Assembly (NCBI GenBank): GCA_041640035.1
Contig: JBEQBC010000007.1
Coordinates: 1-34,144, forward strand
Reading direction: 5' to 3'
Source: Candidatus Nanohaloarchaea archaeon
Lineage (GTDB): Archaea; Nanohalarchaeota; Nanosalinia; Nanosalinales; Nanosalinaceae
DNA: 34,144 bases
The position numbers and the translations under genes are program-made. This document shows, in pieces, positions 3,097-34,142 of this stretch (position 1 is its first letter; each line of letters begins with the position of its first letter). Below the pieces are notes generated by a model. The model did no database searches and had not been told where the DNA came from. It worked only from the letters and a program-made list of their open reading frames with translations.

Positions 3097-4248
3097 GTGA
3101 AACTCCACGAGCACGAAGCCAAACAGATCCTGGAAGAATACGGACTTAACACACCTTCACAGGAACTGGAGGAAAACAAGGAGTATGTAGTGAAAGCACA
3201 GGTCATGGCAAATAACAGGAAAGAAATCGGAGCTATCAAGTTCGCAAAAGACCTGGAGGAAGCAGAAGCGCTCAAACAGGAGATAACTGGCGCAGAGTTC
3301 AAAGGAGTAGAAGCTGAAAAAATTTTGATCGAGGAGAGAATGAATATTGGGAAAGAATACTACGCATCCTTCATGTACGACACAGACAGCAGAAGCCCCG
3401 TCATGATGTTCTCAAAAGAAGGTGGAACAGGGGTAGAAGACAGAGAAGCAGAAAAACTTGAACTACCGGATGATTCACAGTTCAGATTCAGGCAGTTCCT
3501 CAAAGAACAGGGAGTAGAAGGAAAAACACTAGTAAAACTAGGAGCCACACTACAGAAACTATTCAAAGCATTCCTGGAAGAAGACGCAAGACTACTGGAA
3601 GTCAACCCATTAGCCAGCACCGACAAAGGATTCACAGTAGTCGACGCCATGATGGAACTGGAAGACGACGCATCATACAGAAGAGACAGAGAATTCCCAG
3701 AAAGAACAGCAACGGGGGAGGAAAAAACCGAGAGAGAACTAAGAGCCGAAAAAATAGATGAGGACGACCACAGAGGAATAGCAGGAAAATACACAGAACT
3801 CGAAGGCGATATCGGAATGATGCTAGCAGGCGGAGGAGCCAGCCTAACAAACATGGACGCATTGATAGAGTACGGCGGCGAACCAGCCAACTATACAGAG
3901 TATGGAGGAAATCCGCCGACAGAAAAAGTCTACCGGCTATCCAAAGTCATTATGAGCAAACCCGGTCTCAACGGGCTCTGGCATGTAGGGGGAACCGCAA
4001 ACAATACAGATATCTACAGAACGATGAAAGGGTTCGTACAGGCGCTGGAAGAAGTTGAACCCGATTACCCGATAGTAATACGCCGTGATGGCCCGAACGC
4101 AGACAAAGCATTTGAGCTGCTTAGGGAAAAGAAAGAAGAGCTAGGTCTGGATATGAAGCTGTTTAGAAACGATAAACCGATGACTGAAAGCGCCGAGGAT
4201 CTGATGGAGATGGTTGAAAAGTATAAAGAGGAGCAGAAAGATGAGTAA
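3097..4248 (+). CDS. Citryl-CoA synthetase / ATP-citrate lyase beta-type subunit (SucC-like ATP-grasp plus ACL-type citrate-binding domain)
   Basis: KLHEHEAK, VVKAQ, EYY and LEVNPL of the SCS-beta superfamily. The C-terminal MLAGGGAS, PANYTEYGGNP, GGTANNT and IRRDGPN match ACL rather than SucC (NGAGLAM, ANFLDVGG, VRLEGNN). Confidence 0.8.
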   Translation: MKLHEHEAKQILEEYGLNTPSQELEENKEYVVKAQVMANNRKEIGAIKFAKDLEEAEALKQEITGAEFKGVEAEKILIEERMNIGKEYYASFMYDTDSRSPVMMFSKEGGTGVEDREAEKLELPDDSQFRFRQFLKEQGVEGKTLVKLGATLQKLFKAFLEEDARLLEVNPLASTDKGFTVVDAMMELEDDASYRRDREFPERTATGEEKTERELRAEKIDEDDHRGIAGKYTELEGDIGMMLAGGGASLTNMDALIEYGGEPANYTEYGGNPPTEKVYRLSKVIMSKPGLNGLWHVGGTANNTDIYRTMKGFVQALEEVEPDYPIVIRRDGPNADKAFELLREKKEELGLDMKLFRNDKPMTESAEDLMEMVEKYKEEQKDE

Positions 4249-4906
4249 GATTCCTGTGTTTGATATTGGAGATACGCTGATTCCTTCAAGCGAGAACATC
4301 AATCAGGCGGTAAACAAGCAACTGGAGAAAGAAGGGGTAGAAGAGAAGCCCTTTTTCCCGATCAACGACTTTAACATCTACAAGGTGGAAGATGTACGGG
4401 CCTGGCTGGACAAACACGGTATAGATGCCGATGCTGAAGCAATCAGAGACGCTTACCTTGACTGGAAGGACGATTACTTCAAGCGTTCAGGTATACTCAA
4501 GGAACTGAAGAAACTGAATGAGGAATACGGACCTATCGGCTTCATAAGTGACAACAGTTTGGAAGCACGGGAATACTATACAGAGGTCTTCAAAAGACAC
4601 GGTTTGGATTACAGTGGTTTCGTGGTGTCTGAGCAGGTTGGAGCGGAGAAACCAGATCCGGCGATATTTAAGGCATTTCTGGATGAGCGAAGTGAACCAT
4701 CAGAGAAATTTGTCTACTTCGGAAACTATGTGGAAAGAGACAGAGGAGCTGAAAAAGTTGGAATGGGCTTTGTCTGGGTCAAACAGTTCCATACATTTGA
4801 CTCTGAAACCGATAAGAGCCCTCAGATACAGAATCTATCCTACAGGACGGTCAAAGAATCGCTTGAAAAAATTTCAATAGGAAACGGAGATGAAAACAAC
4901 CTATGA
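4241..4906 (+). CDS. HAD-superfamily hydrolase
   Basis: FDIGDTL (motif I), VGAEKPDPAIF (III) and YFGNYVERD..A..VGM (IV, with Asn in place of Asp). The ATG at 4241 overlaps the upstream stop. Confidence 0.85.
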   Translation: MSKIPVFDIGDTLIPSSENINQAVNKQLEKEGVEEKPFFPINDFNIYKVEDVRAWLDKHGIDADAEAIRDAYLDWKDDYFKRSGILKELKKLNEEYGPIGFISDNSLEAREYYTEVFKRHGLDYSGFVVSEQVGAEKPDPAIFKAFLDERSEPSEKFVYFGNYVERDRGAEKVGMGFVWVKQFHTFDSETDKSPQIQNLSYRTVKESLEKISIGNGDENNL

Positions 4907-5793
4907 GCATACTGGTAGATGAGAACACAAAAGTACTTGTCCAAGGGATTACTGGCAGAGAGGCAAGTGAAAAAGTACCGGAGATGATCGAGTACGGAAC
5001 CGAAGTCATTGCAGGCGTAACACCCGGCAAAGGAGGACAGAAAGTCGAAGGAGTCCCGGTCTATGACACGGTCGCGGAAGCTCTCTCACAGCACCCAGAG
5101 ATAAACACCTCACTCATCTATGTACCACCCTTCGCAGCCAAAGACGCAATACTGGAAGCACTGGAAAACGGCATCAAAACACTGAATGTAATCACAGAAA
5201 GAATACCAACACGAGACGCATGGAAGATATACCAAGAAGTCCAGAAACACGACGCCAGTTTGGTAGGGCCAACCTCAGTAGGAATAATAACACCTGAAGA
5301 AACCAAACTAGGGCCGATCGGCGGAAACGAACCAGAAAAAGTCTACAAAAGCGGCAAAGTAGGGATAATTTCCAAGTCGGGTGGAATGACAACTGAGACG
5401 GCCTGGGTGGTTAGACAGGCAGGATACGGTGTATCAACAGCAGCAGGTCTCGGAGGCGATGTAATCGCAGGAACAACCTTCGAAGACGCCCTTAAAATGT
5501 TTGAAGAAGACGATCAGACTGAAGCAGTTGTCATGTATGGAGAGCTTGGAGGAACTTACGAGGAGAAAGCAGCAGAACTACTCGAGAACAACGGTTTCAC
5601 CAAGCCCTTGATTGCTTTCATAGCTGGAAATTTCACTGAAGACATGCCTTCACGGCAGTACGGTCACGCAGGAGCAGTGATAAGAGGAAACCGCGGGAAA
5701 CCCTCACACAAGAAAAAGAAACTGGCTGAAGCTGGAGCACATGTAGTCGATGTACACCACGAGATAGGTGATAAGCTTAACCAGCTTCTCTGA
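4903..5793 (+). CDS. CoA-binding alpha subunit (SucD-like; probable citryl-CoA synthetase small subunit)
   Basis: VLVQGITG, GVTPGKGG, ISKSGGMT, YGELGG and the phospho-His motif YGHAGA. Confidence 0.88.
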   Translation: MSILVDENTKVLVQGITGREASEKVPEMIEYGTEVIAGVTPGKGGQKVEGVPVYDTVAEALSQHPEINTSLIYVPPFAAKDAILEALENGIKTLNVITERIPTRDAWKIYQEVQKHDASLVGPTSVGIITPEETKLGPIGGNEPEKVYKSGKVGIISKSGGMTTETAWVVRQAGYGVSTAAGLGGDVIAGTTFEDALKMFEEDDQTEAVVMYGELGGTYEEKAAELLENNGFTKPLIAFIAGNFTEDMPSRQYGHAGAVIRGNRGKPSHKKKKLAEAGAHVVDVHHEIGDKLNQLL

Positions 5794-5840
5794 TATCTAC
5801 AGTCCCAAGATATAATTCTCAAGGAATTCAACTGCTTCAC

Positions 5841-6230
5841 ATGTACGGAATAACCAGAAAGATCGGGGAAGAAGATTTCGAAGAGGTACGGGATAGAACG
5901 GAAGAACGGCTTTCAGAGCACGGATTCGGAGTTCTATCTGAAATCAATGTACAGGAAAAACTTGAGAAAAAACTGGATGTACAGTTTCAGGATTACACCA
6001 TTCTCGGTGCTTGCAGTCCTTCTCATGCATATGAGGTGTTGAATGAGGAAACGAAGCTTGGCTTGCTTCTGCCTTGTAATGTTATAATCTACAGAGAGGA
6101 AGGAGAGGTCTATGTGTCAGCTGTTGATCCTGAAAAACTTCTTGAAGTAGCGGAGAACGACGATCTGGAGCCGGTAGCTGAGGAGATAAGAGAAAAACTG
6201 GTTTCCGTCGTGGAAGAAGTACAGGGATAA
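5841..6230 (+). CDS. DUF302 family protein
   Basis: GFGVLSEINVQ..L..KL, YTILGACSP and GLLLPCNVIIY. Confidence 0.9.
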   Translation: MYGITRKIGEEDFEEVRDRTEERLSEHGFGVLSEINVQEKLEKKLDVQFQDYTILGACSPSHAYEVLNEETKLGLLLPCNVIIYREEGEVYVSAVDPEKLLEVAENDDLEPVAEEIREKLVSVVEEVQG

Positions 6231-6267
6231 AAGAAGAAAAGAGACAGAAAGTTATTGACTTGTGTTT

Positions 6268-6915
6268 TTACCGGTCTGCTCTCAACAGCTTACCGTAGTA
6301 CACTCCTGTGAATATCACGAGAACTCCGAGTACTGTAAAGAACTCGACAACCATGTACTGTACTGGTCCGGATGCAGCTCCGTGTAGAGGTCCTGAGACC
6401 GCAAGGACAAGGAATCCTAGTGCCATCAGGATCAGTTTCTTTCTTCTCACTCCTTCGCTATTCCTTGCCATGTTCAGGAACACTAAGGTTCCCATTCCAA
6501 CCCAGACGACTAGTGAGGGGATCGCAATCACAGGGACTATTTGAGCCCATGCGGAGATCTGCAGGTGCATCGCTATTCCTCCGGCCAGAAGCAGTCCTCC
6601 GAAGACATACTCCGTCCATTCTGGCTTGTAGATGTAGGTCGCTATCCTCGAGAAGTATGCCAGGCTGATGTACATGAACATGTGTGCGAATACAAGGATG
6701 CCTGTCAACTCGGTGCTTCCAAGGTTGGGGTAAAGTACTCTGGAGCCCAGTATAAGCTGGAAAAGCGCGAAGAAGGCAAAAGATTTGTAAAGCATCTCTA
6801 TAGTGTGAATGCCTTCTTCTTTGGTCGTTTTCCAAAACTTAAGAGATATCAGACCGGTTACGAAAGCCATAATAAGGCTTCCGATATTGCTGATCATGAC
6901 TGGTTCTAAAGCCAT
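6268..6915 (-). CDS. Seven-TM membrane protein, sensor-like, with no cytoplasmic domain
   Basis: About 7 hydrophobic segments with a basic loop (VRRKK) before TM6. The likely start is MALEPV at 6915; the ORF track starts at 6978. Confidence 0.7.
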   Translation of the reverse strand: MALEPVMISNIGSLIMAFVTGLISLKFWKTTKEEGIHTIEMLYKSFAFFALFQLILGSRVLYPNLGSTELTGILVFAHMFMYISLAYFSRIATYIYKPEWTEYVFGGLLLAGGIAMHLQISAWAQIVPVIAIPSLVVWVGMGTLVFLNMARNSEGVRRKKLILMALGFLVLAVSGPLHGAASGPVQYMVVEFFTVLGVLVIFTGVYYGKLLRADR

Positions 6916-7144
6916 AACAGAACAGTGTAAATTATCAAACAAATTATTTTCGGTCGCTATCAAGAAAAATACGCTCATTTATCTCTTATTCAAGCACCTA
7001 ATCCGCTTTCAGCTCGGAAAAGAAGATTTTATTTGGTTAAAAATATTTATGGTAAATAAATCGAAATTCTAGGTCTTCTCCACTAACCGAATAGGAACAA
7101 GGAATATCAATATCAACGGTCCAATGGTTTCCTAGGTGTACAAA

Positions 7145-7846
7145 ATGACAGATTGGGAGACAGAGATAGCATCAAGTGGTGAAGATGCAGTTATCAGAGG
7201 AAAACCGTTGGAGGAAGTGATGGAGATGGATTTCGCTGATGCTATCTGGATGCTTTTGAAGGGAGAAGAACCTTCTGAAGAGGAATCAGAAATATTCAAT
7301 ACTATACTAAGTTCATCGATAGATCACGGTGTAGGAAACCCGAGCACAGTATCTGCTCGAACAGTTCAGAGCGGAGGGAACGATATGAATACCTCTGTAG
7401 GTGCTGGAGTGCTAGCACTTGGAGATAAACATGGAGGAGCTATTGAAGAATGCATGAATCTTCTGCAGTCCGATAAAAGTGCTGAAGAGATAGTCGGTGA
7501 AAAACTTGAGGCGGGCGAAAAAATTCCTGGTCTAGGACATAAGGTCTACAGTGAGGAAGATCCTCGCGCTTCAAAAATTCTGGAGAAAGCTGAAGAACTC
7601 GGTTTGGCTGGTCCGGCTGTAGAGAAGATGCAGGAAATCCAGAGTGTCTTCGCAGAGCGAAAGGTCGACCTCGTCATGAATGTTGACGGTGCAATCGCTG
7701 CTGTTATGAGCGACTTGGAGTGGAGCCCTGAGCTTGGAAAAGGGTTCTTCATTATCGCAAGGACTCCTGGTCTCGTGGCGCATGTACATGAGGAGATGGG
7801 TGAAGAGGACTTCAGACGGGAAGAAGGAGAGTACAAAGGAAAATAA
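7145..7846 (+). CDS. ccl: Citryl-CoA lyase (citrate-synthase fold, short type)
   Basis: W.TEI start, IRG, IDHG..PST..AR, GDKHGGAIE, IPGLGHKVY..EDPR, NVDGAIAA and FIIARTPGLVAH. At ~233 aa it is too short for a citrate synthase. Confidence 0.88.
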   Translation: MTDWETEIASSGEDAVIRGKPLEEVMEMDFADAIWMLLKGEEPSEEESEIFNTILSSSIDHGVGNPSTVSARTVQSGGNDMNTSVGAGVLALGDKHGGAIEECMNLLQSDKSAEEIVGEKLEAGEKIPGLGHKVYSEEDPRASKILEKAEELGLAGPAVEKMQEIQSVFAERKVDLVMNVDGAIAAVMSDLEWSPELGKGFFIIARTPGLVAHVHEEMGEEDFRREEGEYKGK

Positions 7847-8399: not shown

Positions 8400-8498
8400 A
8401 TAACCAGAGTTTCTCAATTCCACTGTTAAAAATTCCTTCCCCCTGAAGCCTAGTGAAATCGAAACTATAAAACCTGTAAGAACTTATTGAATAAATAT

Positions 8499-8903
8499 AT
8501 GAGAAAAGGAATAACACCTGTAGTAGCTATTATTCTCTTGATATCGATTACTGTTACAGCGGCTGGAACAGTATACACTTATGTAAATGCCGCTCAGCCA
8601 GATGATGTCGGAGATCAGGTGGAGTTCTCAGATCAACTCAGTGTCAACTTTGAAAGCTGCTGGTCTGATGGCTCAGGTTACAGATACAGCATAAGAAACA
8701 CCGGTGAAACAGCGTTCAACACTTCCAAAATAAATGTTTTAGTAAACAGCAGACCTCAATCTGAAAGTGAGTTTGACTTCACTCAGGTTGCTGTAAACCC
8801 TCAGGAAACATTTGAACTATTCGTCGATAATGTTGATAGAGGAGATACACTGGAGATGGTTAAAGGAGATACGACAGTCACTGAGACCTGCAGAATAAGC
8901 TGA
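8499..8903 (+). CDS. Type IV pilin / archaellin-like protein with a class III signal peptide
   Basis: MRKG|ITPVVAIILLISITVTAAG prepilin motif, followed by a beta-rich domain with IRNTG and two Cys. Confidence 0.88.
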   Translation: MRKGITPVVAIILLISITVTAAGTVYTYVNAAQPDDVGDQVEFSDQLSVNFESCWSDGSGYRYSIRNTGETAFNTSKINVLVNSRPQSESEFDFTQVAVNPQETFELFVDNVDRGDTLEMVKGDTTVTETCRIS

Positions 8904-8925
8904 AACATGTACAAAATAAGTGGGA

Positions 8926-9000
<75 letters not shown>

Positions 9001-9072
9001 ATCTGTTGACCTGTGTGAATAAGAGGAGGTGTTAATACTTTTAAACATGTTCTAATTTCTGAATTTCCTTCA

Positions 9073-17278: not shown

Positions 17279-17689
17279 TTACCTGTAGGACTTCTGCTGT
17301 TTGTGTCGAGCTCCTTTGCTCGACTGGCTTGGTTTTCTGGTCTCGGTTCTTCGAGGGTCTTCGACCATCATGTTTCGGTCGTATTCCCTGAACTCTCTTT
17401 CCAGGTCGTCGCTTCCTGTCCATTCTACCAGTGCACGGGCTACTGCCATTCTCATGGCTTCTGCCTGTCCCTGTACTCCGCCGCCGTTGGCGTTGACCTC
17501 GATTGTGAGGTCTCCGTAGATTTCTTCTCCGGCGATGGTTAATGGTTCTTTGACTCGGTTCTGAACCATTTCTTCCTGTACATGGAGGGGTCGGGAGTTG
17601 ATTCTTAGTTCTCCGTCTCCTTCTGTGATGGTTGCTCGTGCTTTGGCTGTCTTTCTTTTACCTGATGCGTGTGCTGCTTCGTCGCTCAT
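17279..17689 (-). CDS. rps9: 30S ribosomal protein S9 (uS9)
   Basis: SGKRKTAKARA, GGGVQGQAEA, ARAL and C-terminal QKSYR. Confidence 0.97.
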   Translation of the reverse strand: MSDEAAHASGKRKTAKARATITEGDGELRINSRPLHVQEEMVQNRVKEPLTIAGEEIYGDLTIEVNANGGGVQGQAEAMRMAVARALVEWTGSDDLEREFREYDRNMMVEDPRRTETRKPSQSSKGARHKQQKSYR

Positions 17690-17691
17690 TT

Positions 17692-18123
17692 TTAGTTCTG
17701 TTCACCTCTGAAATCGGAACCGATGTGCTCTGAGATTTCGGTCAGGGAGACATAGTTCCTGTTCTTCAGGTCTTTGCCTTCCTTGACTTCTACCTCTTCT
17801 ACTTCGTCGAATCTGTCCGGTACCTGTAGGTATGCTCGGACATTCGATCTGAGTTCTCTTCCGTCCGGTCCGTCAGGAAGCATGTTCTTGACTGTACGCT
17901 TCAGGATCTTGTCCGGACGCTTCTGGAAGTAAGGTCCGCGGTCTCTTCTTCCACGGTCAAACTTCTGTTTGTAGTCTGCTAGTACTTTTTCTTTTTCTCC
18001 TGATACGACTGCGTCTTCGCTGTTGACGATGTGTACTTCTTCGCCGTCTTTTACTCTTCTTGCTACTTCTGATGCGAGTCGTCCCAGGATCTTGTTTTCT
18101 GCGTTGATTACTGTTGCGCTCAT
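17692..18123 (-). CDS. rpl13: 50S ribosomal protein L13 (uL13)
   Basis: VINAENKILGRLASEVA, IVNSEDAVVSG and RPDKILKRTVKNMLP. Confidence 0.96.
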   Translation of the reverse strand: MSATVINAENKILGRLASEVARRVKDGEEVHIVNSEDAVVSGEKEKVLADYKQKFDRGRRDRGPYFQKRPDKILKRTVKNMLPDGPDGRELRSNVRAYLQVPDRFDEVEEVEVKEGKDLKNRNYVSLTEISEHIGSDFRGEQN

Positions 18124-18470
18124 TTTACGATTTTCACCTCTGAACCTTCAGGGTTTTCGTCCAGTAGGTCACGGATGAACTTGAACTCTCCGTTTTCGTT
18201 TATCTTGTTTTTAGCTCCTGTGGAAGCTTTGAAAGCTGCAACTTCAACCTCTTTGCTCAGGATACCTGAGCCGAGTACCTTTCCTGGTACTACTACCGTG
18301 TCGCCTTCTTCTGTCACTCTCTCGATATCTGAGATGTTGACTTCAGGTCTTTGACGGTTTACTTTTCCAAGGTTTTCAGCTACATCTTTCCAGATGTTTG
18401 CGTCCTGCTGTTCGAGTGTTTCGATAGTCTCACGCAGGACAGGGTTCGTAGGGTCTGCTTTTTTATCCAT
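18120..18470 (-). CDS. rpl18e: 50S ribosomal protein L18e
   Basis: TNPVL, IWKDVA, VNISDI, VVVPGKVLGSG and VAAFKAS. Confidence 0.96.
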   Translation of the reverse strand: MDKKADPTNPVLRETIETLEQQDANIWKDVAENLGKVNRQRPEVNISDIERVTEEGDTVVVPGKVLGSGILSKEVEVAAFKASTGAKNKINENGEFKFIRDLLDENPEGSEVKIVK

Positions 18471-24404: not shown

Positions 24405-27400
24405 TTATTCCTCTACAAGTTCGCCGGTCTCACTGTCGATAACGGCCTGAGACTTACCTTCCAAGTCCTCAAGGTTCTCATCATAATCAGCAAGGAAGTT
24501 ACCTGCTGCCGTAGTGTCCTCAGCGGTCTGACCAGCAACAACCAGTGCATCATAACCATCAGTGAAGGCATCCGAAACCATCTGAAGCAGTCCCTCACCT
24601 TCAGTATACTCATCACCGGTCCAGGAATCACCCTGTTCAGCTAGGTCCTCTGTGAGATCGTTCACATCAGGACCACCGACTAGAATTAGGTCTTGGCTGG
24701 TACTTGCTTCGCTGTCAAGTACACCTACTTCAGATGTACCCTGAGGTTCAATCAGGTTGTAAGAACTGTCACCTGACTGGCTTGTGGAAACCTCTCCAAC
24801 AGCATGACTAGCATAACGCTGATTCTCTGGGTAACTGAAGCTTGCAGAACCTTCAGGCTCGAAATCAACCTGAGTACCGTAGTTACTGATTGTGGTGGTT
24901 TCGGAAGTGGTTGAACTGATGCCGTTGTTTGAATCAAGACTGTCCACTTGATTACTTCCATCGTAACCGACTTGCAGGTTATCAAAGCTACCGCTTCCTT
25001 CTTTCACATCAATAGCTGAGTTGCCTGAGTCATAACGGATTTCTGCTCCTAGCTGAGTGTCAAGAGTCTTATCCGAACTGCTTAGAGTGAAGTCTTCTTC
25101 ACCGTTTCCACCAGTACTATCGAAGCTTGTAGTGAAAGAGAATCCATAACCTGTATCATGAGTGGTTGAACTATCTCCTACGCTGACAGTTTGCTCAAAT
25201 GTTTCGTATGAAACTGTCACCTCATCAGCGGAATCATCAAACTGCACTCTTACAGGATGTCCGCTTACATCAGTGTAGAGATCCTTATCTCCAGAACCAT
25301 CTTCTAGGATGCCTCCAGAAATACTGCCGGTAATGACTGTGTCGGTTCCGGCTTGGTAGACACTATCGCCATCATCATCTACAATTGCGTCTCCGTCCAC
25401 ATAGGCGTTGTCTTCATCGTCACTGGTGTGCTTAATATTGGTTCCGAAGTTGTGTAGTGTTTTTCCGCTTAGAGCAACCTGGTTATTTCCAGTGGTTATC
25501 TGGTTAACTTCAAGGATGTCTTGGCTGCCATCGTATGCATTGCTTCCGACATACATTGTCTTTCCAGCTGTGAAAGATTGCTGGCTGTTGGAAAATCCGC
25601 CTGAGACAATCACTGTGTCAGTTCCTGAGGCATCCAAATTTGTATCGCTACTTCTTATGATGGCTTCGGATCCAACATCTAATGAGGTATCTCCGGTATT
25701 CTCGAGATAATACTCATCTAGTTGATTTAATGACACTCCTACATCAGCACCTGTTGATGTCACTCCGCTTCCAGCGGAGTATGTCTGAGTTGAGAAAATC
25801 GTCGCTCTTACATCTGTTGCGGCGATTGAACCACTTCCGTCATGATCGACATAGATTGCCTTATCGGCAGAATAACCTCCGCTTTCATCAACATCCCAGT
25901 AGGAAAGTTGCGCAGATCCTAGATTCCCGTCGAAATTGTTGGCAGGACCATAGCTACCGGAGGTAATGTCGTAATCTACAGCTTCAAATGTTGCTCCTTG
26001 CGAACTTTGATCTGTTCCAAAGTCTAGTATTACGCTATCTCCAGAGCCGTAAGAACCATCATCTCCTCCGGCAGTATCATAATCAATATTGTTGAGGGTG
26101 GCGGTGCCGTCGAAATTTACACCGCTGGAGGTTGCTACATATGGACTATTGCCTTCAGGGAAGACAATATCTCCGGATGAGATGCCTGAACTCGAGTCTG
26201 TATCGTATACAAGTTCGTCTCCATCACTGTATGAACCGGTGGTAGATCCATCTGCATCTACATAATGCCATGAGCCAGTCAGAGAACTCAAAGTAAATCC
26301 TGTATCAAAGTCGGCTGAACTGACTTGTGCAGGTCCTGTTCCTGCTAAGTTTCGGTTTATGTCACCTGTAGAGCCTCCTGATGAAGTTGATGCTACTGTG
26401 ATTGAAGTTTCTCTTGTAGCAGTGCTATCAACTGTTGATGCAGAAGTAGAGTAGATTGGTTCTAGTGCGTTTCCTGAGCCGTCTCCAGTGTATTGACTGT
26501 CAGCCTCTGTGTCTACATATTTTACAGAGGAACCGATGGCTGAAAGGACGCCACTACTTCCGCCTTTCTCTATCTCACCTGGATTCAATTGATTGTCACC
26601 ACTGTCTACAATTGCCTGGTTTCCATCGAATCCTGACGAGCTGGCGATATAATATTCAGAAGCTGAAAAATCAGATATGGTAGAACTTCCTAAGTTTGAG
26701 TTTCCTACCTCCCTAGTTGCCTTTAGAACATCGTCTTCGTCTTCGTATGTTCCAACATTAGTTCCATCATCTACGAACATGGTAGGACTAGTTGTTGATC
26801 CATCATTGAAGTTATAGAGTGTGCTCGTAGCTCCTGCTACCAAATTCCGGATGTCTAGACTCTGGTCGAATCCTTCTTTGTCTGTGTATTCGACGGTGTA
26901 GTCTTCGCTGAATGTGATTTCTTCTGTTGCTTCGTTGGTTAGTCCGGTGTTTGCAAGTGTGAAGTAGCCTTGTGGTCCTTGGAAGCTGTCTCCTGCCTCT
27001 AGGGCTTCGACTTCGTCTTCGTTCAGGTTGTCACTGTTTTTGTCGACTGCTGCTACCTGGTTGGATAGGCTGATCTTGGAGATTTTTCCACTCTGGAATG
27101 TTAGACTGGTTTTGTAGTCTGGTGTGATTTCGCTGTCTTCTCCGTCTACAAGTGTGTATTCGCTGTAGGTGGATGTTACATCTATGTAGTCTCTCTGGCT
27201 TCCGAAGAACACGCTGTCTGCTGTTACTTCGAATTTTCCGTTGTCTACCGTTGTTGTGTTGCCTGTTCCGAGCCCTGTTGATTTCAGTTCATCTCCGTCT
27301 TTACTGATTGATACATAGATTTCGCTGTTAGACTGGTCCTTGTCGACTACTTCTACTGTGTATGGTCCGTGTGTGTAGCTGTCTCCAACTTCTAATCCGT

Positions 27401-28010
27401 TCTGGTCTTGGTTGCTTCCTAGGTCTACTTCTCCTGCTCCTGTGTCGATCCCTGTTACCTCGTATTCTTCTCCGAGAAGTGTGATTGTTTCGTCTGTGTC
27501 GAAGCTTGGACTGTAGCTTACCGAATAACTTACCGTGTTGGAGCTTACTGTGGTTTCTACTGTATCGTTTACTGCGATGGTGTTGACTCCGGTGTTGGTT
27601 ACATCTATATTTTCTACGATGTAGTGGTCTGTGTCGTCATCCGCTGTTACGACTTCTCTGACTAGGTTGCTGTAGTCTGATTTATCGATTGAAAGGCTGG
27701 AAAGGCTTCCACGGATAGCCACATCTTTGCTAACCCCGTTTACACTGGTGGTTTCTCCTGAGCCTTCAACGGTCTGTGTAGTATTGCTGTACGCGTCGTT
27801 TCCAAGTGTTGTCGCGATATCTATAGCTGATACAACATCGGATGTTTTTGCGTCTTCTCCTACTACGATGCTAGAGCTTAGTGCTCCGTCATCGTCTACG
27901 AAAGGTTGTGGTAGGTCTCCAAGGTTTTGAGCTGCTGCACCGGAAGCCAGGAGCGTTACTCCAAGCAAGCCGGCAGAAAACTTCTTCGAAAGCTTGCGGA
28001 TCTTTTTCAT
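24405..28010 (-). CDS. S-layer protein (S_layer_N / S_layer_C type) with a large internal insert
   Basis: Signal peptide MKKIRKL..GAAA|Q, N-domain L..PQPFV...IVVG..A..SDVVSAIDIA and C-domain LILVGGPDVN.LT...ALVVAG....T..A. Confidence 0.88.
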   Translation of the reverse strand: MKKIRKLSKKFSAGLLGVTLLASGAAAQNLGDLPQPFVDDDGALSSSIVVGEDAKTSDVVSAIDIATTLGNDAYSNTTQTVEGSGETTSVNGVSKDVAIRGSLSSLSIDKSDYSNLVREVVTADDDTDHYIVENIDVTNTGVNTIAVNDTVETTVSSNTVSYSVSYSPSFDTDETITLLGEEYEVTGIDTGAGEVDLGSNQDQNGLEVGDSYTHGPYTVEVVDKDQSNSEIYVSISKDGDELKSTGLGTGNTTTVDNGKFEVTADSVFFGSQRDYIDVTSTYSEYTLVDGEDSEITPDYKTSLTFQSGKISKISLSNQVAAVDKNSDNLNEDEVEALEAGDSFQGPQGYFTLANTGLTNEATEEITFSEDYTVEYTDKEGFDQSLDIRNLVAGATSTLYNFNDGSTTSPTMFVDDGTNVGTYEDEDDVLKATREVGNSNLGSSTISDFSASEYYIASSSGFDGNQAIVDSGDNQLNPGEIEKGGSSGVLSAIGSSVKYVDTEADSQYTGDGSGNALEPIYSTSASTVDSTATRETSITVASTSSGGSTGDINRNLAGTGPAQVSSADFDTGFTLSSLTGSWHYVDADGSTTGSYSDGDELVYDTDSSSGISSGDIVFPEGNSPYVATSSGVNFDGTATLNNIDYDTAGGDDGSYGSGDSVILDFGTDQSSQGATFEAVDYDITSGSYGPANNFDGNLGSAQLSYWDVDESGGYSADKAIYVDHDGSGSIAATDVRATIFSTQTYSAGSGVTSTGADVGVSLNQLDEYYLENTGDTSLDVGSEAIIRSSDTNLDASGTDTVIVSGGFSNSQQSFTAGKTMYVGSNAYDGSQDILEVNQITTGNNQVALSGKTLHNFGTNIKHTSDDEDNAYVDGDAIVDDDGDSVYQAGTDTVITGSISGGILEDGSGDKDLYTDVSGHPVRVQFDDSADEVTVSYETFEQTVSVGDSSTTHDTGYGFSFTTSFDSTGGNGEEDFTLSSSDKTLDTQLGAEIRYDSGNSAIDVKEGSGSFDNLQVGYDGSNQVDSLDSNNGISSTTSETTTISNYGTQVDFEPEGSASFSYPENQRYASHAVGEVSTSQSGDSSYNLIEPQGTSEVGVLDSEASTSQDLILVGGPDVNDLTEDLAEQGDSWTGDEYTEGEGLLQMVSDAFTDGYDALVVAGQTAEDTTAAGNFLADYDENLEDLEGKSQAVIDSETGELVEE

Positions 28011-28101
28011 AGTTAAACAATTAGAAATAATGAGTCGGTCCCGTATAAAATGTACGCCCGGTAAATTCGGAGCCTGTAGAATATGTGTCGTTAAGCTGGT
28101 T

Positions 28102-29814
28102 TTACCTGTTTATTCCGAAGTTACCTTTCTCGTTTTCCAGCTCTCTTCTTAGGTTCTCGATTATCTGTTCGGCCCGGTCGTAGTTTTCGTTCTCCACTGC
28201 AAGTTCTGCCTGACCGATCTTTCTTCTTGCATCGCTTCTGACGCTGTCGTCGTAGTGGTGTGCTCTCAGCAGTCTTGCGACTTCATCCATCTTGTCAGCG
28301 ATCTCTGATTCACGGCTGTCTCCGAACATTGCTGCGATGCTGTCTTTCTTCATGACGATTACTGCTGTGAAGGCTAGAACAGCCAGTACTGCTGCTACTT
28401 CTTTCACCGGTAGTCCTGATGAGCTTTCTGTAGTATCTGAACTCATTCTCTGTGCTTCTTCTGCAAGTATCTCTGCTCGACTGTAGTCGCCTTCCTCGTA
28501 TGCGTCCTGTGCTCTTTCAAGTAGTTCATTGGCTTCTGTTTCTTCCTCTACTGTCTGGTTTGCCTGTTCGATGGTTTCCTCTGCTGTTTCTCTCGGTGAC
28601 TGTTCACAGTTCTCTGTACATTCTTCTTCCTGATCTCTTGTTCCGCTTGAAGTTGCTGCGAAGTATCCTGGCGGATCTATTATGGTTTCGAAACGGTAGC
28701 TGGTATCTGTTTCACCTACAAGTACTGTGCTAAGTTCCTGCCAGCCCCCTGCGTTGAAGCTCTGGATCATCATCTGTGAAGGGTATATACTGTTCTGTTC
28801 CAGCCGTGTTTTCGACTGTTTGAAAGTTGTTGCGATACTGCTGATCTCTGATGTATCCGCACCATTTATCTGGATCCTGTAGTATGTGAGAGCTGAGTCA
28901 ACAGCTGATACCTCTGTAGGAGCTGCTCTACCCAGATTAGTTACCTCTACTGAGAAGTTAGATGCACCCTGATTTTTAGACACTGTTAGTCTTTCTACTC
29001 CTGTCGCACCTGATTCCTGTAGATCGATTTCAACCTCTGAACTGTTATCTGCATAATTTACATCTGCTGTAACCGTGTTTCCTGAATCTGTTACATCCAC
29101 AGTTAGTTCCTGATCTGATGTACTTCCTCCTGTTGTAGGTACTCCGCCTCCAGCGAAAGAGCCCCCGCCTCCGGACCCACCTCCGGTTGAACCTGAACTT
29201 ACCTGTATATTCTGCGTTGTGGTATCTGTGTTACCTACCAGATCTGTCACTGTCAGTTCAACTGTTTTCTCACCTGTACTTGAGAAAGAGACGGAAGGTG
29301 TTTCTCCCTGTGCACCGGAAACACTCCAGTCGTAATTCAGTATCTGTGTATCGTCGCTGGAACCTGAAGCATCAAGCTCCACTGATTCGCCTGTAGTAAC
29401 TGTGCCAGGTACCGAGAATGAGGCTGTCGGGTTTTCGCTGTCTGATCCGGTGAGGTCTTTTTCTGTGCTGTTTCCGCTGTAGTATGTTGATTCTCCTACC
29501 TCCTCGTTACCGGTTCGGAAGGTGATTGTGTCGCCGGATCCGCCGCCACATACTACGAATCGGTCGTCCTGGTCTGCGTATGTTCCCTGTGATACTGAGG
29601 TCTGTACGCTTACCTTTTCTCCGTCTATGTATGCGGATACTTCTGTTCCCTGTGGTGCTGGTTCTCCGTTTATCGTGAGGTCTCCTCTGAAGTCATGTGG
29701 TATGGAGGGTGCTCCTGATGAGTCTGAGGATGAAAGGCAGTCGCTGGCAGCCCCTAGAGAGGGTAAAGCCAGTAGTACTAGTGCCAGCGCTGCTATTTTC
29801 TTCATCTTTATCAT
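28102..29814 (-). CDS. Cell-surface protein with PKD and PGF-pre-PGF-like domains, a C-terminal TM and a cytoplasmic tail
   Basis: Signal peptide, PHDFRG.LTINGEPAP.GT domain, PKD (PTASF...LDASGSSDD..I..YDW...LTVTD), Gly linker, PGF-pre-PGF-like region (GWQELST...YRFE...PPGYFA) and a TM. Confidence 0.82.
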   Translation of the reverse strand: MIKMKKIAALALVLLALPSLGAASDCLSSSDSSGAPSIPHDFRGDLTINGEPAPQGTEVSAYIDGEKVSVQTSVSQGTYADQDDRFVVCGGGSGDTITFRTGNEEVGESTYYSGNSTEKDLTGSDSENPTASFSVPGTVTTGESVELDASGSSDDTQILNYDWSVSGAQGETPSVSFSSTGEKTVELTVTDLVGNTDTTTQNIQVSSGSTGGGSGGGGSFAGGGVPTTGGSTSDQELTVDVTDSGNTVTADVNYADNSSEVEIDLQESGATGVERLTVSKNQGASNFSVEVTNLGRAAPTEVSAVDSALTYYRIQINGADTSEISSIATTFKQSKTRLEQNSIYPSQMMIQSFNAGGWQELSTVLVGETDTSYRFETIIDPPGYFAATSSGTRDQEEECTENCEQSPRETAEETIEQANQTVEEETEANELLERAQDAYEEGDYSRAEILAEEAQRMSSDTTESSSGLPVKEVAAVLAVLAFTAVIVMKKDSIAAMFGDSRESEIADKMDEVARLLRAHHYDDSVRSDARRKIGQAELAVENENYDRAEQIIENLRRELENEKGNFGINR

Positions 29815-32800
29815 CCTAGTTCTTCTTCAGTGTTCATCCCTGCCAGTGTGTCGTCGTTCTCCATGAAGACCCAGTAACCTTCGTATGGGTACATTCCGTA
29901 GGTTTCACTGTTGTCAAGGTTGGATGTGAATACGCTCCAGTCTGCCTCGTTTCCTGAAGGGGATATAACGGTTGAGTATCCTGTGTCTTCCTTTGTGATT
30001 CCGCTTACTGAGTTCAGGAAGTATTCTGAGGCCATGTAGGTGCTTTTCGGTCTGTCTATTCCTGCGTTGACTGCTAGTCCTACAAGGTTCCATCCCTGGT
30101 CCAGTTCTCTGACTGCTGGTCTTACTGCTGTGTTTCCTCTCTTGCTCTGCCATTTGAAACCGATTCCGTCGGTCTCTGAGGCCTTGATGTAGTAGGCTTC
30201 CAGTGGTTTGAGGTTGTGGCTGTCTTCAAGCTGTTCCCAGTTCTCGTTCTCTACATCATATCTGTAGGCGATCGAACTGTTCATACCGTTTCCGTACTGC
30301 TTGAGTTCTCCCCATTCTGATTCGTAAAGTCTTCTAGGTGTTGATATCAGGTTCCATCCTGGCTGCATCGCCATGGTTTGATCCATGGTTTCGGATGTTT
30401 TCTGTGATCCGAGTAGCCATGGCCGTGCCATCGGAAGTGCTCCGCTGTAACTGTCTCTGATCAGGATGTCTCCTCTCTCGTACTCTGATACCTGTCCGTC
30501 GTAAAGGTTCTTGACGAACGGTGTAGGTCCTGCGCCTGATCCCCACCAGTTGTCCTCAAGGTTTCCGGTTGAGCTGACCAGTCCTACTCCGTAGTAACTG
30601 TTTCCTGCTATATCAGTCATTGAGACATTTACATGTGAGCTATCTGCTATGAGTGCTGCACGATTTCTTTCGATATCTGAATCTGTCAGCTTCATATCCG
30701 AGTACTGTCTTGCTGATGTCGCGAAGTTGTTGCTGTAGGAACTCATGTTCTCCACTCTGATATCTGTCTGCATCACCGATATACCGATGTAGTTGTCTCT
30801 GAACTCAGAATCCATCACTTTAACCTGATAACTGTCCGTGGCGGTTATGCTTGGTGCTTCTTCTGTTCCGATTGCTTCTCTGAGTTCGCTTGGCGAGCTG
30901 TACTGGCTTGCTTTCTCTCTGATTGTTTCTATCCGTTCGCCTACGCTTTCTACTGCGTTCACTGTTTCCCGTGCGTCGATAGCTGATGATGCTGTGAACT
31001 GCTGGAAGTCGCTGGTGTCAGGTGTGGAGTATACTCCGTAAGAGTTGTTGTAGAATCTGCTGTCTTTCACTACTGCTTCTACTCCTGGTGTGGTGAGGAC
31101 TGCTCCTCCGTACTGACTGGATCCAAGGTTTCTGAATGTCACATCTTTGACTGTCAACGGTGTGTCATCTGTGCTGTCCTGTGTGTAAAGTACTCCGGCT
31201 GCTGCTCCAACTATCTCCAGGTTCTTGATCGTTACTGGTTCGGCGTTTACATCCATGACCAGGTGCTGTGCTCTTCCTGAGATGGTTACATCTCCCTGTC
31301 CCTTGATGGTGACTGCTTTGTCGATTGTAAGCGGTAATGTGTCTTTGATCCCGGTGTAGGTGTCTTTGACTATGATTGTGTCTCCGGAGTTCGCGTTGTT
31401 CACTGCTTTCTGGATCGAGCTGTATGACTTGTCCGTACCTGAGATAACCACTGAGTCGCTGTTCGCTGTGATCAGGTCTGTGGTCTTGCTGACTTCTCCG
31501 CTTGGAATCGATTCGTATGCGTTCATCCCTGGGAAGGAGAATGTGTATGTGTAGTTGTCTCCGCTGTTTGGAAGTGTTACGGTTTCCTCGAATGTCCCTG
31601 CGATTCCGTATCCTTCGTTAGCGTCCTGTGTTGAAAGTACTCTTCTTGGCTGGTCTGTGTTGCCGTCCTTGAATACCTTCAGGCCTTGACAGTTTGAGTC
31701 TCTTACCTGGCAGATTCCCTGGTAGACTGCGTCTGTTCCGCTTCCTGCGTCTTCAGGTCCTTTCAGTTCAAATCCGACATTCTTAGGTTCGACGACTGCG
31801 TCCTCAACAATCATTGTATGTGAGTTGCCTGAGTCGTCCTCAACAACCATCTTGACATCGACTTTTTCGTAACCGTTCTTAGGGATGCTTCCCTGTAATT
31901 GGAAGTTGTCTTCTACTTCATTTGCCAGTCTCCAACTGCTTTTGTTCCCTGAGCTACGGTATCGGTAGTAAACTGCTAAGTTTGTACCTGGATTGTTGTC
32001 TCCTCCTGTTATATCGAAGTCGACTGAATTACCTGAGAACTTGACAGGCATATTGATGTCGGAGAAGTATGGTGGTACTCTGTCGGAGCCTTTGGTGATA
32101 TCGTAATGGGTTTCGATTCTGCTCCATGCCGGCATGTCCTCTATCATCGACATCTCCAGTTCGATTCTGTAGTCGGTGTTGTCCTTCAGGTTTCTGGTTA
32201 TTCCATACCAGTAGAAGCTGTCCCTCTGATCCAGGGTCTTGCTTCCGTTCTCGTAGATCCTGAGGGTTGGTCTTCCTTCTCCTTCGAACTCTGTGTTTCC
32301 ATTAGGTCCTCTGAGAAGATTCTCGATTCGTATATCATTGTAAGCGGTGATCTGAGCTTTTCCAGGTAGTACAGGAAGTTCTCCTAGTGATGACTGTGAT
32401 CCTGTGTTCTCTGGCGGAAGTGTCTGCCCCCAGCTGAACGGTCCTACATCCACATCCAGTTCGTAATCTGCCTGTGCTGCTTCCAGTTCGTGTGTGGTGA
32501 TGCTTGTCGGTACTGCTGTATCTGTTCCGAGGAACGGACCGAGATAAGAGCCTGAAGTCTGCCATGAAACCGTTCTATCGTACTCCGTCTTATCCGTAAG
32601 GTTTCCAGGATAAGCTACTGATACAGGGGTGGTCCTTGTTTCTGAGAAGGATACATCTCCGATGTCTGACTGTGTGTCGAATGTTGCTGCTGTCGCGTAG
32701 ATATCCTTGGCTACTTCTTTGTGGACATCGGCTGCTTCTCCACATCCGTTGCTGCAGATACTGTTTTCCTGTTTCAGTGCGAGTCCTGAGATGGTTACAT

Positions 32801-34142
32801 CCCAGTCGACATCTGCGTCGTCAGCTACCTTGGATACATGTACGGTCTGGTCTCCGAGCGCCTCCATATCTATGTTGCCGACAACTCCGGCGTCCCAGCT
32901 TTCCTGGCTCATGAAACCGATTTCCATGGATCTGTGCCACAGAGTGTTTCCGTTCCATGTCCCGGGGTAGTTTACTGCTGTAGCTGTCGACGCATCCAGT
33001 GTAACACTGTTTACGGAGGAGGTATCGACTTCTTCCTGTAAGACGAATTTTTCATCCGTTCCGAGTTTGAGTGCGGATACCACATAGTTGTCCTGTGGTA
33101 GTGCTATCTGTGTTGATCCTCCGCTTAGTTCAACCTGTTCGACTTCGTCTCCGTTCGCTGCGTTGTTGATGTATACTTCTGCTGAAGTGTCTGTTCCTGT
33201 GCTGTCGTGGACATTTACTGTCAGGTAGTTTCTTTTGACGAAGCTGTATGGAAGTCTGTGTTCTATCTGGTTTCCGTCCGAGTTGACTACTGCGGTTACT
33301 GTTCCTTCCAGGATCCCGCTACAGCTTCCTGCATTGGTTACATCCATGGTGATGTCTTTACCTGCTTCTGAGCTGATGGTTGTGTCGTTTGCTGAGAAGC
33401 TGAAGGTAGGTGAGCAGCCTCCTGAGCTTTCAAGGTTGTCTGGATCTTCTACATAGAAGGTGACCGTCGCGGAGTCGTCTCCTGGTAGAAGGCTTACATT
33501 GAAGGTTTTGGAGAAGCTTGTTGAGTCGACTTCTCCCATGAAAAGTGAGGATTTCTTGAATGATACTGATGCGTTCACTGCTTCTGTCAGGTTGATCCGT
33601 CCTGCTCCCTGCGTGAAAACATCTTCTCCTATACTGTTTGAAGTTGTTTTCAGTACTGAGGTGGTTTCGTTGACTGTAAGGTCTCTGTCCTGCATCAGAA
33701 GGGCTGCTGCGCCGGATACATGTGGTGTTGCCATTGATGTACCCTGGATGCTGTTCCATCCTCCGTCGATCCATGCTGCTTTGATCCCTACTCCTGGTGC
33801 TACCAGGTCAGGTTTGATTCCGGCTACTGAGCCATTGCTGTAGTAAACCGGTCCTCGGCTGCTGAAGTATGCTATATCGTCGTTTCCGTCTACTGCTCCT
33901 ACGGAGAGTGCGTCTTTTGCGTTACCTGGGCTTCCGACTGTTCGGTAGCTGCTTCCATCGTTTCCTGCTGCTACGACTGCGAGTACGCCGCTTGAGACAG
34001 CTGAGTTGATTGCCTTAGCTTTAGCTGAGTTTGCTGCTCCTGGTCCTCCAAGTGAAAGAGAGATAATGTCCAGGTGGTCGCTGGTGTTTCCGTCTCCGTT
34101 AGGGTCGACTGATCTTTCTATTGCGTCGATTATGTCGCTTGA
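29811..34142 (-). CDS. Large extracellular S8 subtilase (Vpr-like) with beta-sandwich regions, a right-handed beta-helix and a C-terminal GWNL domain; 5'-truncated by the window
   Basis: The frame is open to the window end: DIISLSLG, VVAAGNDG, FSSRGP, IKPDLVAPG and catalytic GTSMATPHVSGAAALL. Later come SIQKAVNNA.SGDTI.V, beta-helix coils, NWWG and PGWNLISTP...GWNLVG...EGYWVF. Confidence 0.92.
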   Translation of the reverse strand, partial: SSDIIDAIERSVDPNGDGNTSDHLDIISLSLGGPGAANSAKAKAINSAVSSGVLAVVAAGNDGSSYRTVGSPGNAKDALSVGAVDGNDDIAYFSSRGPVYYSNGSVAGIKPDLVAPGVGIKAAWIDGGWNSIQGTSMATPHVSGAAALLMQDRDLTVNETTSVLKTTSNSIGEDVFTQGAGRINLTEAVNASVSFKKSSLFMGEVDSTSFSKTFNVSLLPGDDSATVTFYVEDPDNLESSGGCSPTFSFSANDTTISSEAGKDITMDVTNAGSCSGILEGTVTAVVNSDGNQIEHRLPYSFVKRNYLTVNVHDSTGTDTSAEVYINNAANGDEVEQVELSGGSTQIALPQDNYVVSALKLGTDEKFVLQEEVDTSSVNSVTLDASTATAVNYPGTWNGNTLWHRSMEIGFMSQESWDAGVVGNIDMEALGDQTVHVSKVADDADVDWDVTISGLALKQENSICSNGCGEAADVHKEVAKDIYATAATFDTQSDIGDVSFSETRTTPVSVAYPGNLTDKTEYDRTVSWQTSGSYLGPFLGTDTAVPTSITTHELEAAQADYELDVDVGPFSWGQTLPPENTGSQSSLGELPVLPGKAQITAYNDIRIENLLRGPNGNTEFEGEGRPTLRIYENGSKTLDQRDSFYWYGITRNLKDNTDYRIELEMSMIEDMPAWSRIETHYDITKGSDRVPPYFSDINMPVKFSGNSVDFDITGGDNNPGTNLAVYYRYRSSGNKSSWRLANEVEDNFQLQGSIPKNGYEKVDVKMVVEDDSGNSHTMIVEDAVVEPKNVGFELKGPEDAGSGTDAVYQGICQVRDSNCQGLKVFKDGNTDQPRRVLSTQDANEGYGIAGTFEETVTLPNSGDNYTYTFSFPGMNAYESIPSGEVSKTTDLITANSDSVVISGTDKSYSSIQKAVNNANSGDTIIVKDTYTGIKDTLPLTIDKAVTIKGQGDVTISGRAQHLVMDVNAEPVTIKNLEIVGAAAGVLYTQDSTDDTPLTVKDVTFRNLGSSQYGGAVLTTPGVEAVVKDSRFYNNSYGVYSTPDTSDFQQFTASSAIDARETVNAVESVGERIETIREKASQYSSPSELREAIGTEEAPSITATDSYQVKVMDSEFRDNYIGISVMQTDIRVENMSSYSNNFATSARQYSDMKLTDSDIERNRAALIADSSHVNVSMTDIAGNSYYGVGLVSSTGNLEDNWWGSGAGPTPFVKNLYDGQVSEYERGDILIRDSYSGALPMARPWLLGSQKTSETMDQTMAMQPGWNLISTPRRLYESEWGELKQYGNGMNSSIAYRYDVENENWEQLEDSHNLKPLEAYYIKASETDGIGFKWQSKRGNTAVRPAVRELDQGWNLVGLAVNAGIDRPKSTYMASEYFLNSVSGITKEDTGYSTVISPSGNEADWSVFTSNLDNSETYGMYPYEGYWVFMENDDTLAGMNTEEELG

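Follow-up and report, generated by a model that had tools for sequence, protein, structure and literature searches.

Do the succinyl-CoA synthetase-like and citrate synthase-like genes of a nanohaloarchaeon represent the remains of a tricarboxylic acid (TCA) cycle, or do they encode a pathway for the cleavage of citrate? The question is raised by positions 3097–7846 of a 34,144-nt stretch of DNA (contig JBEQBC010000007.1 of assembly GCA_041640035.1, Candidatus Nanohaloarchaea archaeon), which was analysed over its full length and is called the window below. An initial annotation, made from the letters alone, had described this interval as a "three-piece ATP-citrate lyase" (ACL) of intermediate architecture. 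From sequence comparisons, we consider it likely that the interval encodes a two-step citrate cleavage of the Hydrogenobacter type, consisting of a citryl-CoA synthetase (CCS; beta subunit 3097–4248 and alpha subunit 4903–5793) and a separate citryl-CoA lyase (CCL; 7136–7846).

Listing and translation of open reading frames (ORFs) gave six ORFs in the interval (Table 1). Those claimed in the initial annotation were all found at the coordinates it gave, and three others had been left out of it: a HAD hydrolase gene, a DUF302 gene and a minus-strand membrane ORF. The start of the HAD gene overlapped the stop of the beta gene by 8 nt and its own stop overlapped the start of the alpha gene by 4 nt (ATGA), indicating that beta, HAD and alpha were packed as one operon, the proteins of which were acidic (pI 4.3–5.1). 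The alpha gene ended with its own stop codon, and 1342 nt separated it from the CCL gene. The closest related locus (L002) came from a Candidatus Nanohaloarchaea metagenome-assembled genome (MAG), with 95% identity in the beta protein and 84–94% identity to the window at the DNA level, confirming the nanohaloarchaeal origin that had been guessed from the sequence.

Domains and motifs of the beta subunit

In a Pfam scan, the product of 3097–4248 contained ATP-grasp_2 (102.3 bits) and, at residues 216–364, Citrate_bind (PF16114; 87.4 bits, cut-off 26.8), and no Ligase_CoA domain was matched. Its score against the NCBIfam SucC equivalog was 194.8 bits, and the cut-off of 370 was not reached. The best match among PDB sequences was the CCS large subunit of H. 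thermophilus (6hxq_B, 228 bits, E 2.4e-66), followed by the best succinyl-CoA synthetase (SCS) beta subunit (154.3 bits) and Chlorobium AclB (142.8 bits). With the C-terminal domain alone, 6hxq_B scored 128.6 bits vs 67 for SCS beta and 64.5 for AclB.

The four motifs quoted in the initial annotation (AGGGAS, ANYTEYGGNP, GGTANNT and RRDGPN) were all present in the beta translation. In an alignment with 46 relatives, G245–G247, N265, G271, P273, A301, R329, R330 and G332 were invariant and N302 and T304 were at least 90% conserved, indicating that the motifs are not due to chance. G271, N302, T304 and R330 aligned with G309, N346, T348 and R379 of human ACLY, which we take to be citrate contacts; the SucC in that alignment had Arg, Asp and Leu in place of N302, T304 and R330. 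The motif set was shared by H. thermophilus CcsA (6hxq_B), with GGTANNT identical, whereas ACL beta subunits read ANFT at that place, so by motif the beta subunit is CcsA-like rather than ACL-like.

Phylogeny of the beta subunit

Among 1.84 billion representatives, a protein search recovered 246 relatives at E ≤1e-30. A Pfam scan covered 119 of the 150 relatives listed, the other 31 (fragments, split matches and five set aside for size) being left out. Among the 78 best-scoring scanned representatives, Citrate_bind was found in 75 and Ligase_CoA in none, and the first SucC-type protein appeared in the ranking at 161 bits.

A tree of 81 rows was built with IQ-TREE (LG+C20, quick search). The references were named ATP-citrate lyase beta subunits from Nitrospinae and Nitrospirae, E. 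coli SucC from the K-12 record and, as a proxy for Aquificae CcsA, protein P0163 (510 bits to 6hxq_B). The beta subunit fell in a nanohaloarchaeal clade (support 100) with an Iainarchaeum sequence as its sister (98), and these together lay inside a 56-row group with P0163, DPANN, candidate phyla radiation (CPR), Chloroflexota, Acidobacteriota and ACL sequences. The named ACL beta subunits formed a long-branched clade of their own (support 100), apart from the beta subunit of the window; the order of the CCS lineages and ACL inside the CCS/ACL group was not settled by this tree. E. coli SucC and all proteins with Ligase_CoA formed a separate clade (support 100). The AU test, run under LG+G4 on 33 of the rows, rejected a clade uniting nanohaloarchaeal beta subunits with SucC (delta lnL 72.8, p-AU 2.4e-5), which argues against a position within SucC, the placement that the initial annotation had named as evidence against itself.

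By its domains, its closeness to CcsA over SucC and ACL beta, and its position outside the SucC clade, the protein encoded at 3097–4248 is predicted to be a CCS large subunit (CcsA, K15232). The citrate-type character proposed for it is therefore borne out by the Citrate_bind domain, the missing Ligase_CoA domain, the score below the SucC cut-off and the tree.

A few other relatives were unusual. P0212 was a fully fused ACL of 1023 aa, and in P0243 the ATP-grasp part was preceded by an RNA polymerase alpha C-terminal domain. SucC-like proteins (e.g. P0165, P0175, P0184, P0193, P0196 and P0206) made up three well-supported clades next to SucC, with weak or no Citrate_bind (0–43 bits) and no match to Ligase_CoA; possibly these are CoA ligases acting on other acids.

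The alpha subunit and the citryl-CoA lyase

The alpha protein showed the domain composition of CcsB (K15233), i.e. CoA_binding and Ligase_CoA with the catalytic His, and H255 aligned with the E. coli SucD catalytic His (His246 in mature numbering, 247 with the Met included). The protein was 44% identical to E. coli SucD. Its score against NCBIfam SucD (312.2 bits) was below the cut-off of 336. Against PDB sequences, it scored 280.6 bits with an archaeal SCS alpha subunit (2yv2_A) and 257.4 bits with the CCS small subunit (6hxq_A, CcsB). As the initial annotation had described, it was SucD-sized and unfused, stopping at 296 aa with no lyase module. We predict that it is the CCS small subunit on account of its operon partner.

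The lyase, placed 1.35 kb downstream in the initial annotation, was indeed a separate ORF, and it passed the curated citryl-CoA lyase model NF004869 of NCBIfam (237.5 bits, cut-off 212). Pfam Citrate_synt matched it over profile positions 138–349 of 357 only, i.e. the C-terminal two thirds. The best PDB match was H. thermophilus CCL (6hxp_A, 188.2 bits), the best citrate synthase scoring 85.6. Residues H64, H99, H135, R144, D184, F205 and R209 aligned with H229, H264, H305, R314, D362, F383 and R387 of E. coli GltA, which are given as catalytic or oxaloacetate-binding residues of citrate synthase in a table of PMC13147460. Having the curated match, a short core, and the His/His/Asp and oxaloacetate-binding Arg residues, the protein is predicted to be CCL (K15234), a citrate synthase core without the N-terminal part.

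Linkage of the three genes in other genomes

With one genome scanned for each GTDB species, 523 stretches with relatives were obtained, the best 80 of which were kept, and the window proteins were placed on these loci by tblastn. L002–L040 (59–95% identity) were mostly titled Nanohaloarchaea, Nanosalina, Nanohalobium or Nanosalinarum. L041–L081 (39–47% identity) included archaeal loci from Iainarchaeum, Micrarchaeota, Aenigmatarchaeota, Woesearchaeota and Nanoarchaeia, and bacterial loci from several CPR phyla, Anaerolineae/Caldilineae and Blastocatellia/Chloracidobacterium. Beta was followed by an alpha gene in the same orientation in 37/37 nanohaloarchaeal-type loci and 35/37 others. Where at least 3.5 kb of downstream sequence was available, beta, alpha and CCL were collinear in all 35 nanohaloarchaeal-type loci and in 24 of 30 others, the six exceptions being five of Acidobacteria type (L045–L049) and L052. 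That a citrate-type beta subunit is linked with CCL in so wide a range of lineages is the best indirect evidence for the three proteins acting together.

The cluster was loosened in the window, where the DUF302 gene and the minus-strand membrane ORF lay between alpha and CCL, and L002 had a minus-strand FIST-domain gene (L002:8757–9932) between HAD and alpha. In an Anaerolineae locus, a second, very divergent beta/alpha pair (L078:10975–13033) came right after the beta-alpha-CCL cluster. Several record titles were doubtful: L003 was titled as a Colwellia polaris MAG yet carried a nanohaloarchaeal operon (beta 81% and CCL 86% identical); L045 (Actinomycetota) was nearly identical to L044 (Blastocatellia); and of the loci titled Gammaproteobacteria (L058, L060, L062 and L065), two (L058 and L065) clustered with Magasanikbacteria (CPR) in the 81-row tree. 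These titles (L003, L044/L045 and L058/L060/L062/L065) are probably binning or labelling errors.

Proposed reaction and role

We infer the substrate, the direction of flux and the physiological role, with the chemistry modelled on ACL and on the H. thermophilus enzymes, which have been characterised. On the pattern of SCS and ACL, His255 of the alpha subunit would first be phosphorylated by ATP; citrate, bound by the Citrate_bind domain of the beta subunit, would then receive the phosphate from His255, giving citryl-phosphate. Displacement of the phosphate by CoA would then give citryl-CoA on CCS, and its cleavage by the separate CCL would yield acetyl-CoA and oxaloacetate.

Nanohaloarchaea are described as fermentative and, in three papers, as being without most TCA enzymes (PMC4766312, PMC9563170, PMC10266531); no other TCA-cycle genes were found in the 34-kb window. 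Uptake of citrate or isocitrate has been proposed for their tripartite tricarboxylate transporters (PMC10266531), and an ADP-forming acetyl-CoA synthetase, a malic enzyme and a pyruvate dehydrogenase cluster have been reported in them (PMC9765267). Because of the fermentative metabolism, the few TCA enzymes and the reported tricarboxylate importers, cleavage of imported citrate fits best, and the most likely role of the system is to convert such citrate into oxaloacetate and acetyl-CoA, which could feed biosynthesis or be fermented further to acetate.

Several observations weigh against the assignment as a CCS/CCL system working in this way. The beta subunit is only about 35–40% identical to the characterised H. 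thermophilus enzyme; the branch between the CCS/ACL and SucC groups had only 82% SH-aLRT in the 81-row tree; the AU test covered 33 of the 81 rows with a simpler model; the alpha subunit, taken alone, scored slightly higher with archaeal SCS alpha than with CcsB; and in the window a minus-strand gene cuts CCL off from the operon. In addition, the two steps lie near equilibrium (−5.9 and −2.1 kJ/mol, each ±3.9, about −8 overall; PMC13147460), so the direction is not readable from sequence and was taken from context.

Alternative explanations

That a TCA cycle since lost has left behind an ordinary sucCD pair and a degenerate citrate synthase is suggested by the top NCBIfam names (SucC for beta, SucD for alpha), by some database names (succinyl-CoA synthetase) and by the best PDB match of alpha, an SCS alpha subunit. 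Yet both NCBIfam scores were under the curated cut-offs, far under for beta; beta had no Ligase_CoA domain; the aligned SucC differs at the equivalents of ACLY R379 and of N302 and T304; the trees and the AU test put beta outside SucC; and linkage to CCL was retained in CPR and other bacteria as well as in DPANN archaea. We regard this explanation as extremely improbable. Alternatively, the proteins might act on a related substrate, such as 2-methylcitrate/2-methylcitryl-CoA or another hydroxy-acid, as may be argued from the modest identity to the sole characterised CCS, from 2-methylcitrate synthases among the weaker family and PDB matches of CCL, and from the unexplained HAD hydrolase embedded in the operon. 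Conservation of the beta residues opposite the presumed citrate contacts of ACLY and of the citrate synthase oxaloacetate and catalytic residues in CCL, together with the match of the latter to the curated citryl-CoA lyase model, makes a different substrate very unlikely.

The same enzymes could also run synthetically, with acetyl-CoA and oxaloacetate being joined to citryl-CoA, which would then be converted to citrate with formation of ATP; the energy of the thioester would thereby be conserved through substrate-level phosphorylation, with the citrate perhaps exported to the host. ACL is reported to work in reverse in Desulfobacter postgatei. One ATP per acetyl-CoA is obtained from an ADP-forming acetyl-CoA synthetase, without oxaloacetate being consumed. 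Such a synthetase is already present in nanohaloarchaea (PMC9765267), and reverse CCS/CCL would give no more ATP. Although the near-equilibrium energetics cited above would permit the synthetic direction, citrate would be a dead-end metabolite in organisms described as having no enzymes to use it further (PMC4766312, PMC9563170, PMC10266531), and the tricarboxylate transporters reported are importers (PMC10266531). The synthetic direction is therefore unlikely, and citrate cleavage by CCS and CCL is preferred.

The HAD hydrolase gene inside the operon

The HAD gene (Pfam HAD_2, 37.6 bits) was found between beta and alpha in 28/38 nanohaloarchaeal-type loci by tblastn and in one more (L034) by Pfam, giving 29/38, with two tandem copies in three loci (L003, L006 and L039); in the non-nanohaloarchaeal loci it was found at this place in 0/38. 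The family was small, with 135 proteins at E ≤1e-5 in a search that relies on shared words and so possibly missed distant members, and all of those with an organism name were from Nanohaloarchaeota. In an alignment of 26 members, motif I was VFDIGDTL, in which the nucleophile Asp is kept, Gly occupies the acid/base position at Asp+2 and Asp stands at +3; the further motifs were ISDN, EKPD and YFGN...RD, the last replacing the usual GD/DD motif IV. Database names of the homologues were generic (FMN phosphatase YigB, glucose-1-phosphatase, HAD family hydrolase), and PDB sequences gave weak matches only (≤27 bits; Pyrococcus HAD hydrolases and a dehalogenase), indicating no substrate.

P0130, a CCS beta subunit fused to a HAD-type domain, suggested a beta-HAD link but was not counted as evidence because its fused part had no significant similarity to the HAD protein of the window (best E 0.36). 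The ORFs of ~200 aa in non-nanohaloarchaeal operons, each a methyltransferase, a thioredoxin or unassigned, were not hidden HADs.

It is doubtful that the HAD protein takes part in the nanohaloarchaeal system as a functional third component. As a speculation, one possibility is that it would hydrolyse an acyl-phosphate such as citryl-phosphate, or otherwise reset or regulate the enzyme. If so, and if the published idea that citrate is exchanged with the haloarchaeal host also holds, nanohaloarchaeal citrate cleavage would be a variant specific to the symbiont. The available text of neither PMC4766312 nor bioRxiv 10.1101/2022.10.25.513756 mentions a HAD gene inside the operon, which is the only new detail found here and a small new lead.

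Other genes of the window

As shown in Table 1, the CCS and CCL genes are accompanied by several others. Only the window, L002 and L003 had DUF302 in the alpha-CCL slot. The same slot in nine other nanohaloarchaeal loci contained an unrelated small acidic ORF (~118–149 aa, no Pfam match); seven of the nine were detectably related to each other (25–55% identity), and those of L025 and L037 matched no other member. DUF302 is probably a passenger gene. The hydrophobic ORF on the minus strand does not belong to the CCS/CCL system; tblastn found no counterpart of it among the 80 related loci.

Upstream of the CCS genes, an adenosyltransferase gene lay on the opposite strand, an arrangement seen in 28/30 informative nanohaloarchaeal-type loci vs 0/35 others, which may reflect inherited gene order rather than a functional link. 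The remaining context genes fit a DPANN archaeon.

Table 1. Features of the citrate-cleavage interval, of its neighbourhood in the window and of the alpha-CCL slot in related loci
Feature	Coordinates	Strand	Description	Basis
CCS large (beta, CcsA-type) subunit, predicted	3097–4248	+	383 aa, GTG start	Pfam ATP-grasp_2 + Citrate_bind
HAD-IA-type hydrolase	4241–4906	+	221 aa from ATG 4241 (mechanical ORF: TTG 4214)	Pfam HAD_2
CCS small (alpha, CcsB/SucD-type) subunit, predicted	4903–5793	+	296 aa, GHAGA (H255)	Pfam CoA_binding + Ligase_CoA
DUF302 protein	5841–6230	+	129 aa	Pfam DUF302, 81.6 bits
Hydrophobic ORF	6268–6978	−	236 aa, pI 8.97	no Pfam/NCBIfam match
Citryl-CoA lyase (CCL), predicted	7136–7846	+	236 aa from GTG 7136; alternative start ATG 7145	NCBIfam NF004869
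PduO-type ATP:cob(I)alamin adenosyltransferase	1944–2462	−	upstream of CCS genes, opposite strand	Pfam Cob_adeno_trans
Archaeal type IV pilin	8487–8903	+		
tRNA-Glu(TTC)	8923–9001	−		
S9/L13/L18e ribosomal protein cluster	17279–18470	−		
Three very large surface proteins	24405–33734	−	S-layer outer domain, PKD, beta-helix; 1201, 570, 1307 aa	
Small acidic ORFs in the alpha-CCL slot	L004:3270–3680, L010:6494–6904, L011:10029–10442, L032:10039–10446, others			

Published record and naming

Vavourakis et al. (2016) described SCS-like genes and citryl-CoA lyase in nanohaloarchaeal drafts, noting that H. thermophilus CCS was 35% identical and that the genes might serve in ATP-dependent citrate cleavage (PMC4766312). 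A 2022 preprint (10.1101/2022.10.25.513756) reported CCS and CCL as the only reductive TCA (rTCA) enzymes of Nanohaloarchaea, monophyletic with CCS/CCL, mis-annotated as SCS or citrate synthase in GenBank and with homologues in other DPANN and CPR lineages, and proposed an rTCA cycle shared with the haloarchaeal host. The finding is thus correct, but as a reading of genomes it had been made before. Of the physiological roles suggested in the initial annotation, cleavage of scavenged citrate and operation in reverse, both are reasonable proposals, and the former has been published (PMC4766312; bioRxiv 10.1101/2022.10.25.513756). A literature search pairing the enzyme names with Nanohaloarchaea gave these two sources and a few unrelated papers, and found no biochemical study of the nanohaloarchaeal CCS/CCL.

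As to the miscalling by automated pipelines foreseen in the initial annotation, the names were inconsistent among the 120 homologues listed: JGI gave 14 as "citryl-CoA synthetase large subunit" and 4 as "succinyl-CoA synthetase beta subunit", NCBI gave 8 as "ATP-grasp domain-containing protein" and 3 as "hypothetical", and one UniRef name was succinyl-CoA synthetase. The results confirm that sucCD-like and citrate-synthase-like genes of nanohaloarchaea, and of many other DPANN and CPR lineages, should be annotated as citryl-CoA synthetase and lyase. This alters how the metabolism of these reduced symbionts is reconstructed, with a means of turning scavenged citrate into acetyl-CoA and oxaloacetate in place of a TCA remnant. 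This re-reading is already published and partly built into KEGG/JGI names.

Comparison with known systems

The predicted CCS has the fold family and the phosphohistidine mechanism in common with SucCD (E. coli, 1JKJ). However, SucC contains Ligase_CoA, not Citrate_bind, and belongs to a separate clade, and the window proteins score below the SucC and SucD cut-offs.

Two-subunit ACL (AclAB of Chlorobium and Nitrospira/Nitrospina; 6HXJ; EC 2.3.3.8) shares with the predicted system a homologous Citrate_bind beta subunit and the same overall chemistry, from citrate to acetyl-CoA and oxaloacetate. But the ACL alpha subunit is fused to a CCL module, whereas alpha and CCL are separate in the window, and the ACL beta subunit reads ANFT where the window beta subunit and CcsA read ANNT.

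The closest likeness is to H. thermophilus, in which CCS (CcsAB, 6HXQ, EC 6.2.1.18) and CCL (6HXP, EC 4.1.3.34) are likewise encoded by three separate genes. Its CcsA has FGGGGS, ANFTDIGGNPP, GGTANNT and RRNGPE-type motifs and, like the window beta subunit, an ATP-grasp and a citrate-binding domain; a SucD-like alpha subunit and a lyase that is a short citrate synthase core are also shared. Since three separate genes are the Hydrogenobacter layout, "three-piece ATP-citrate lyase" simply describes CCS/CCL, and the "architectural intermediate" is not upheld, the layout being that of Aquificae CCS/CCL and the same motifs being carried by H. thermophilus CcsA. The H. thermophilus chains are longer (large 429 aa and small 353 aa in the PDB entries, vs 383 and 296 aa). 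H. thermophilus is an autotroph, whereas the source organism of the window is a fermentative DPANN archaeon with an acid proteome and no rTCA cycle, and, unlike in H. thermophilus, the nanohaloarchaeal operon contains an extra HAD hydrolase gene.

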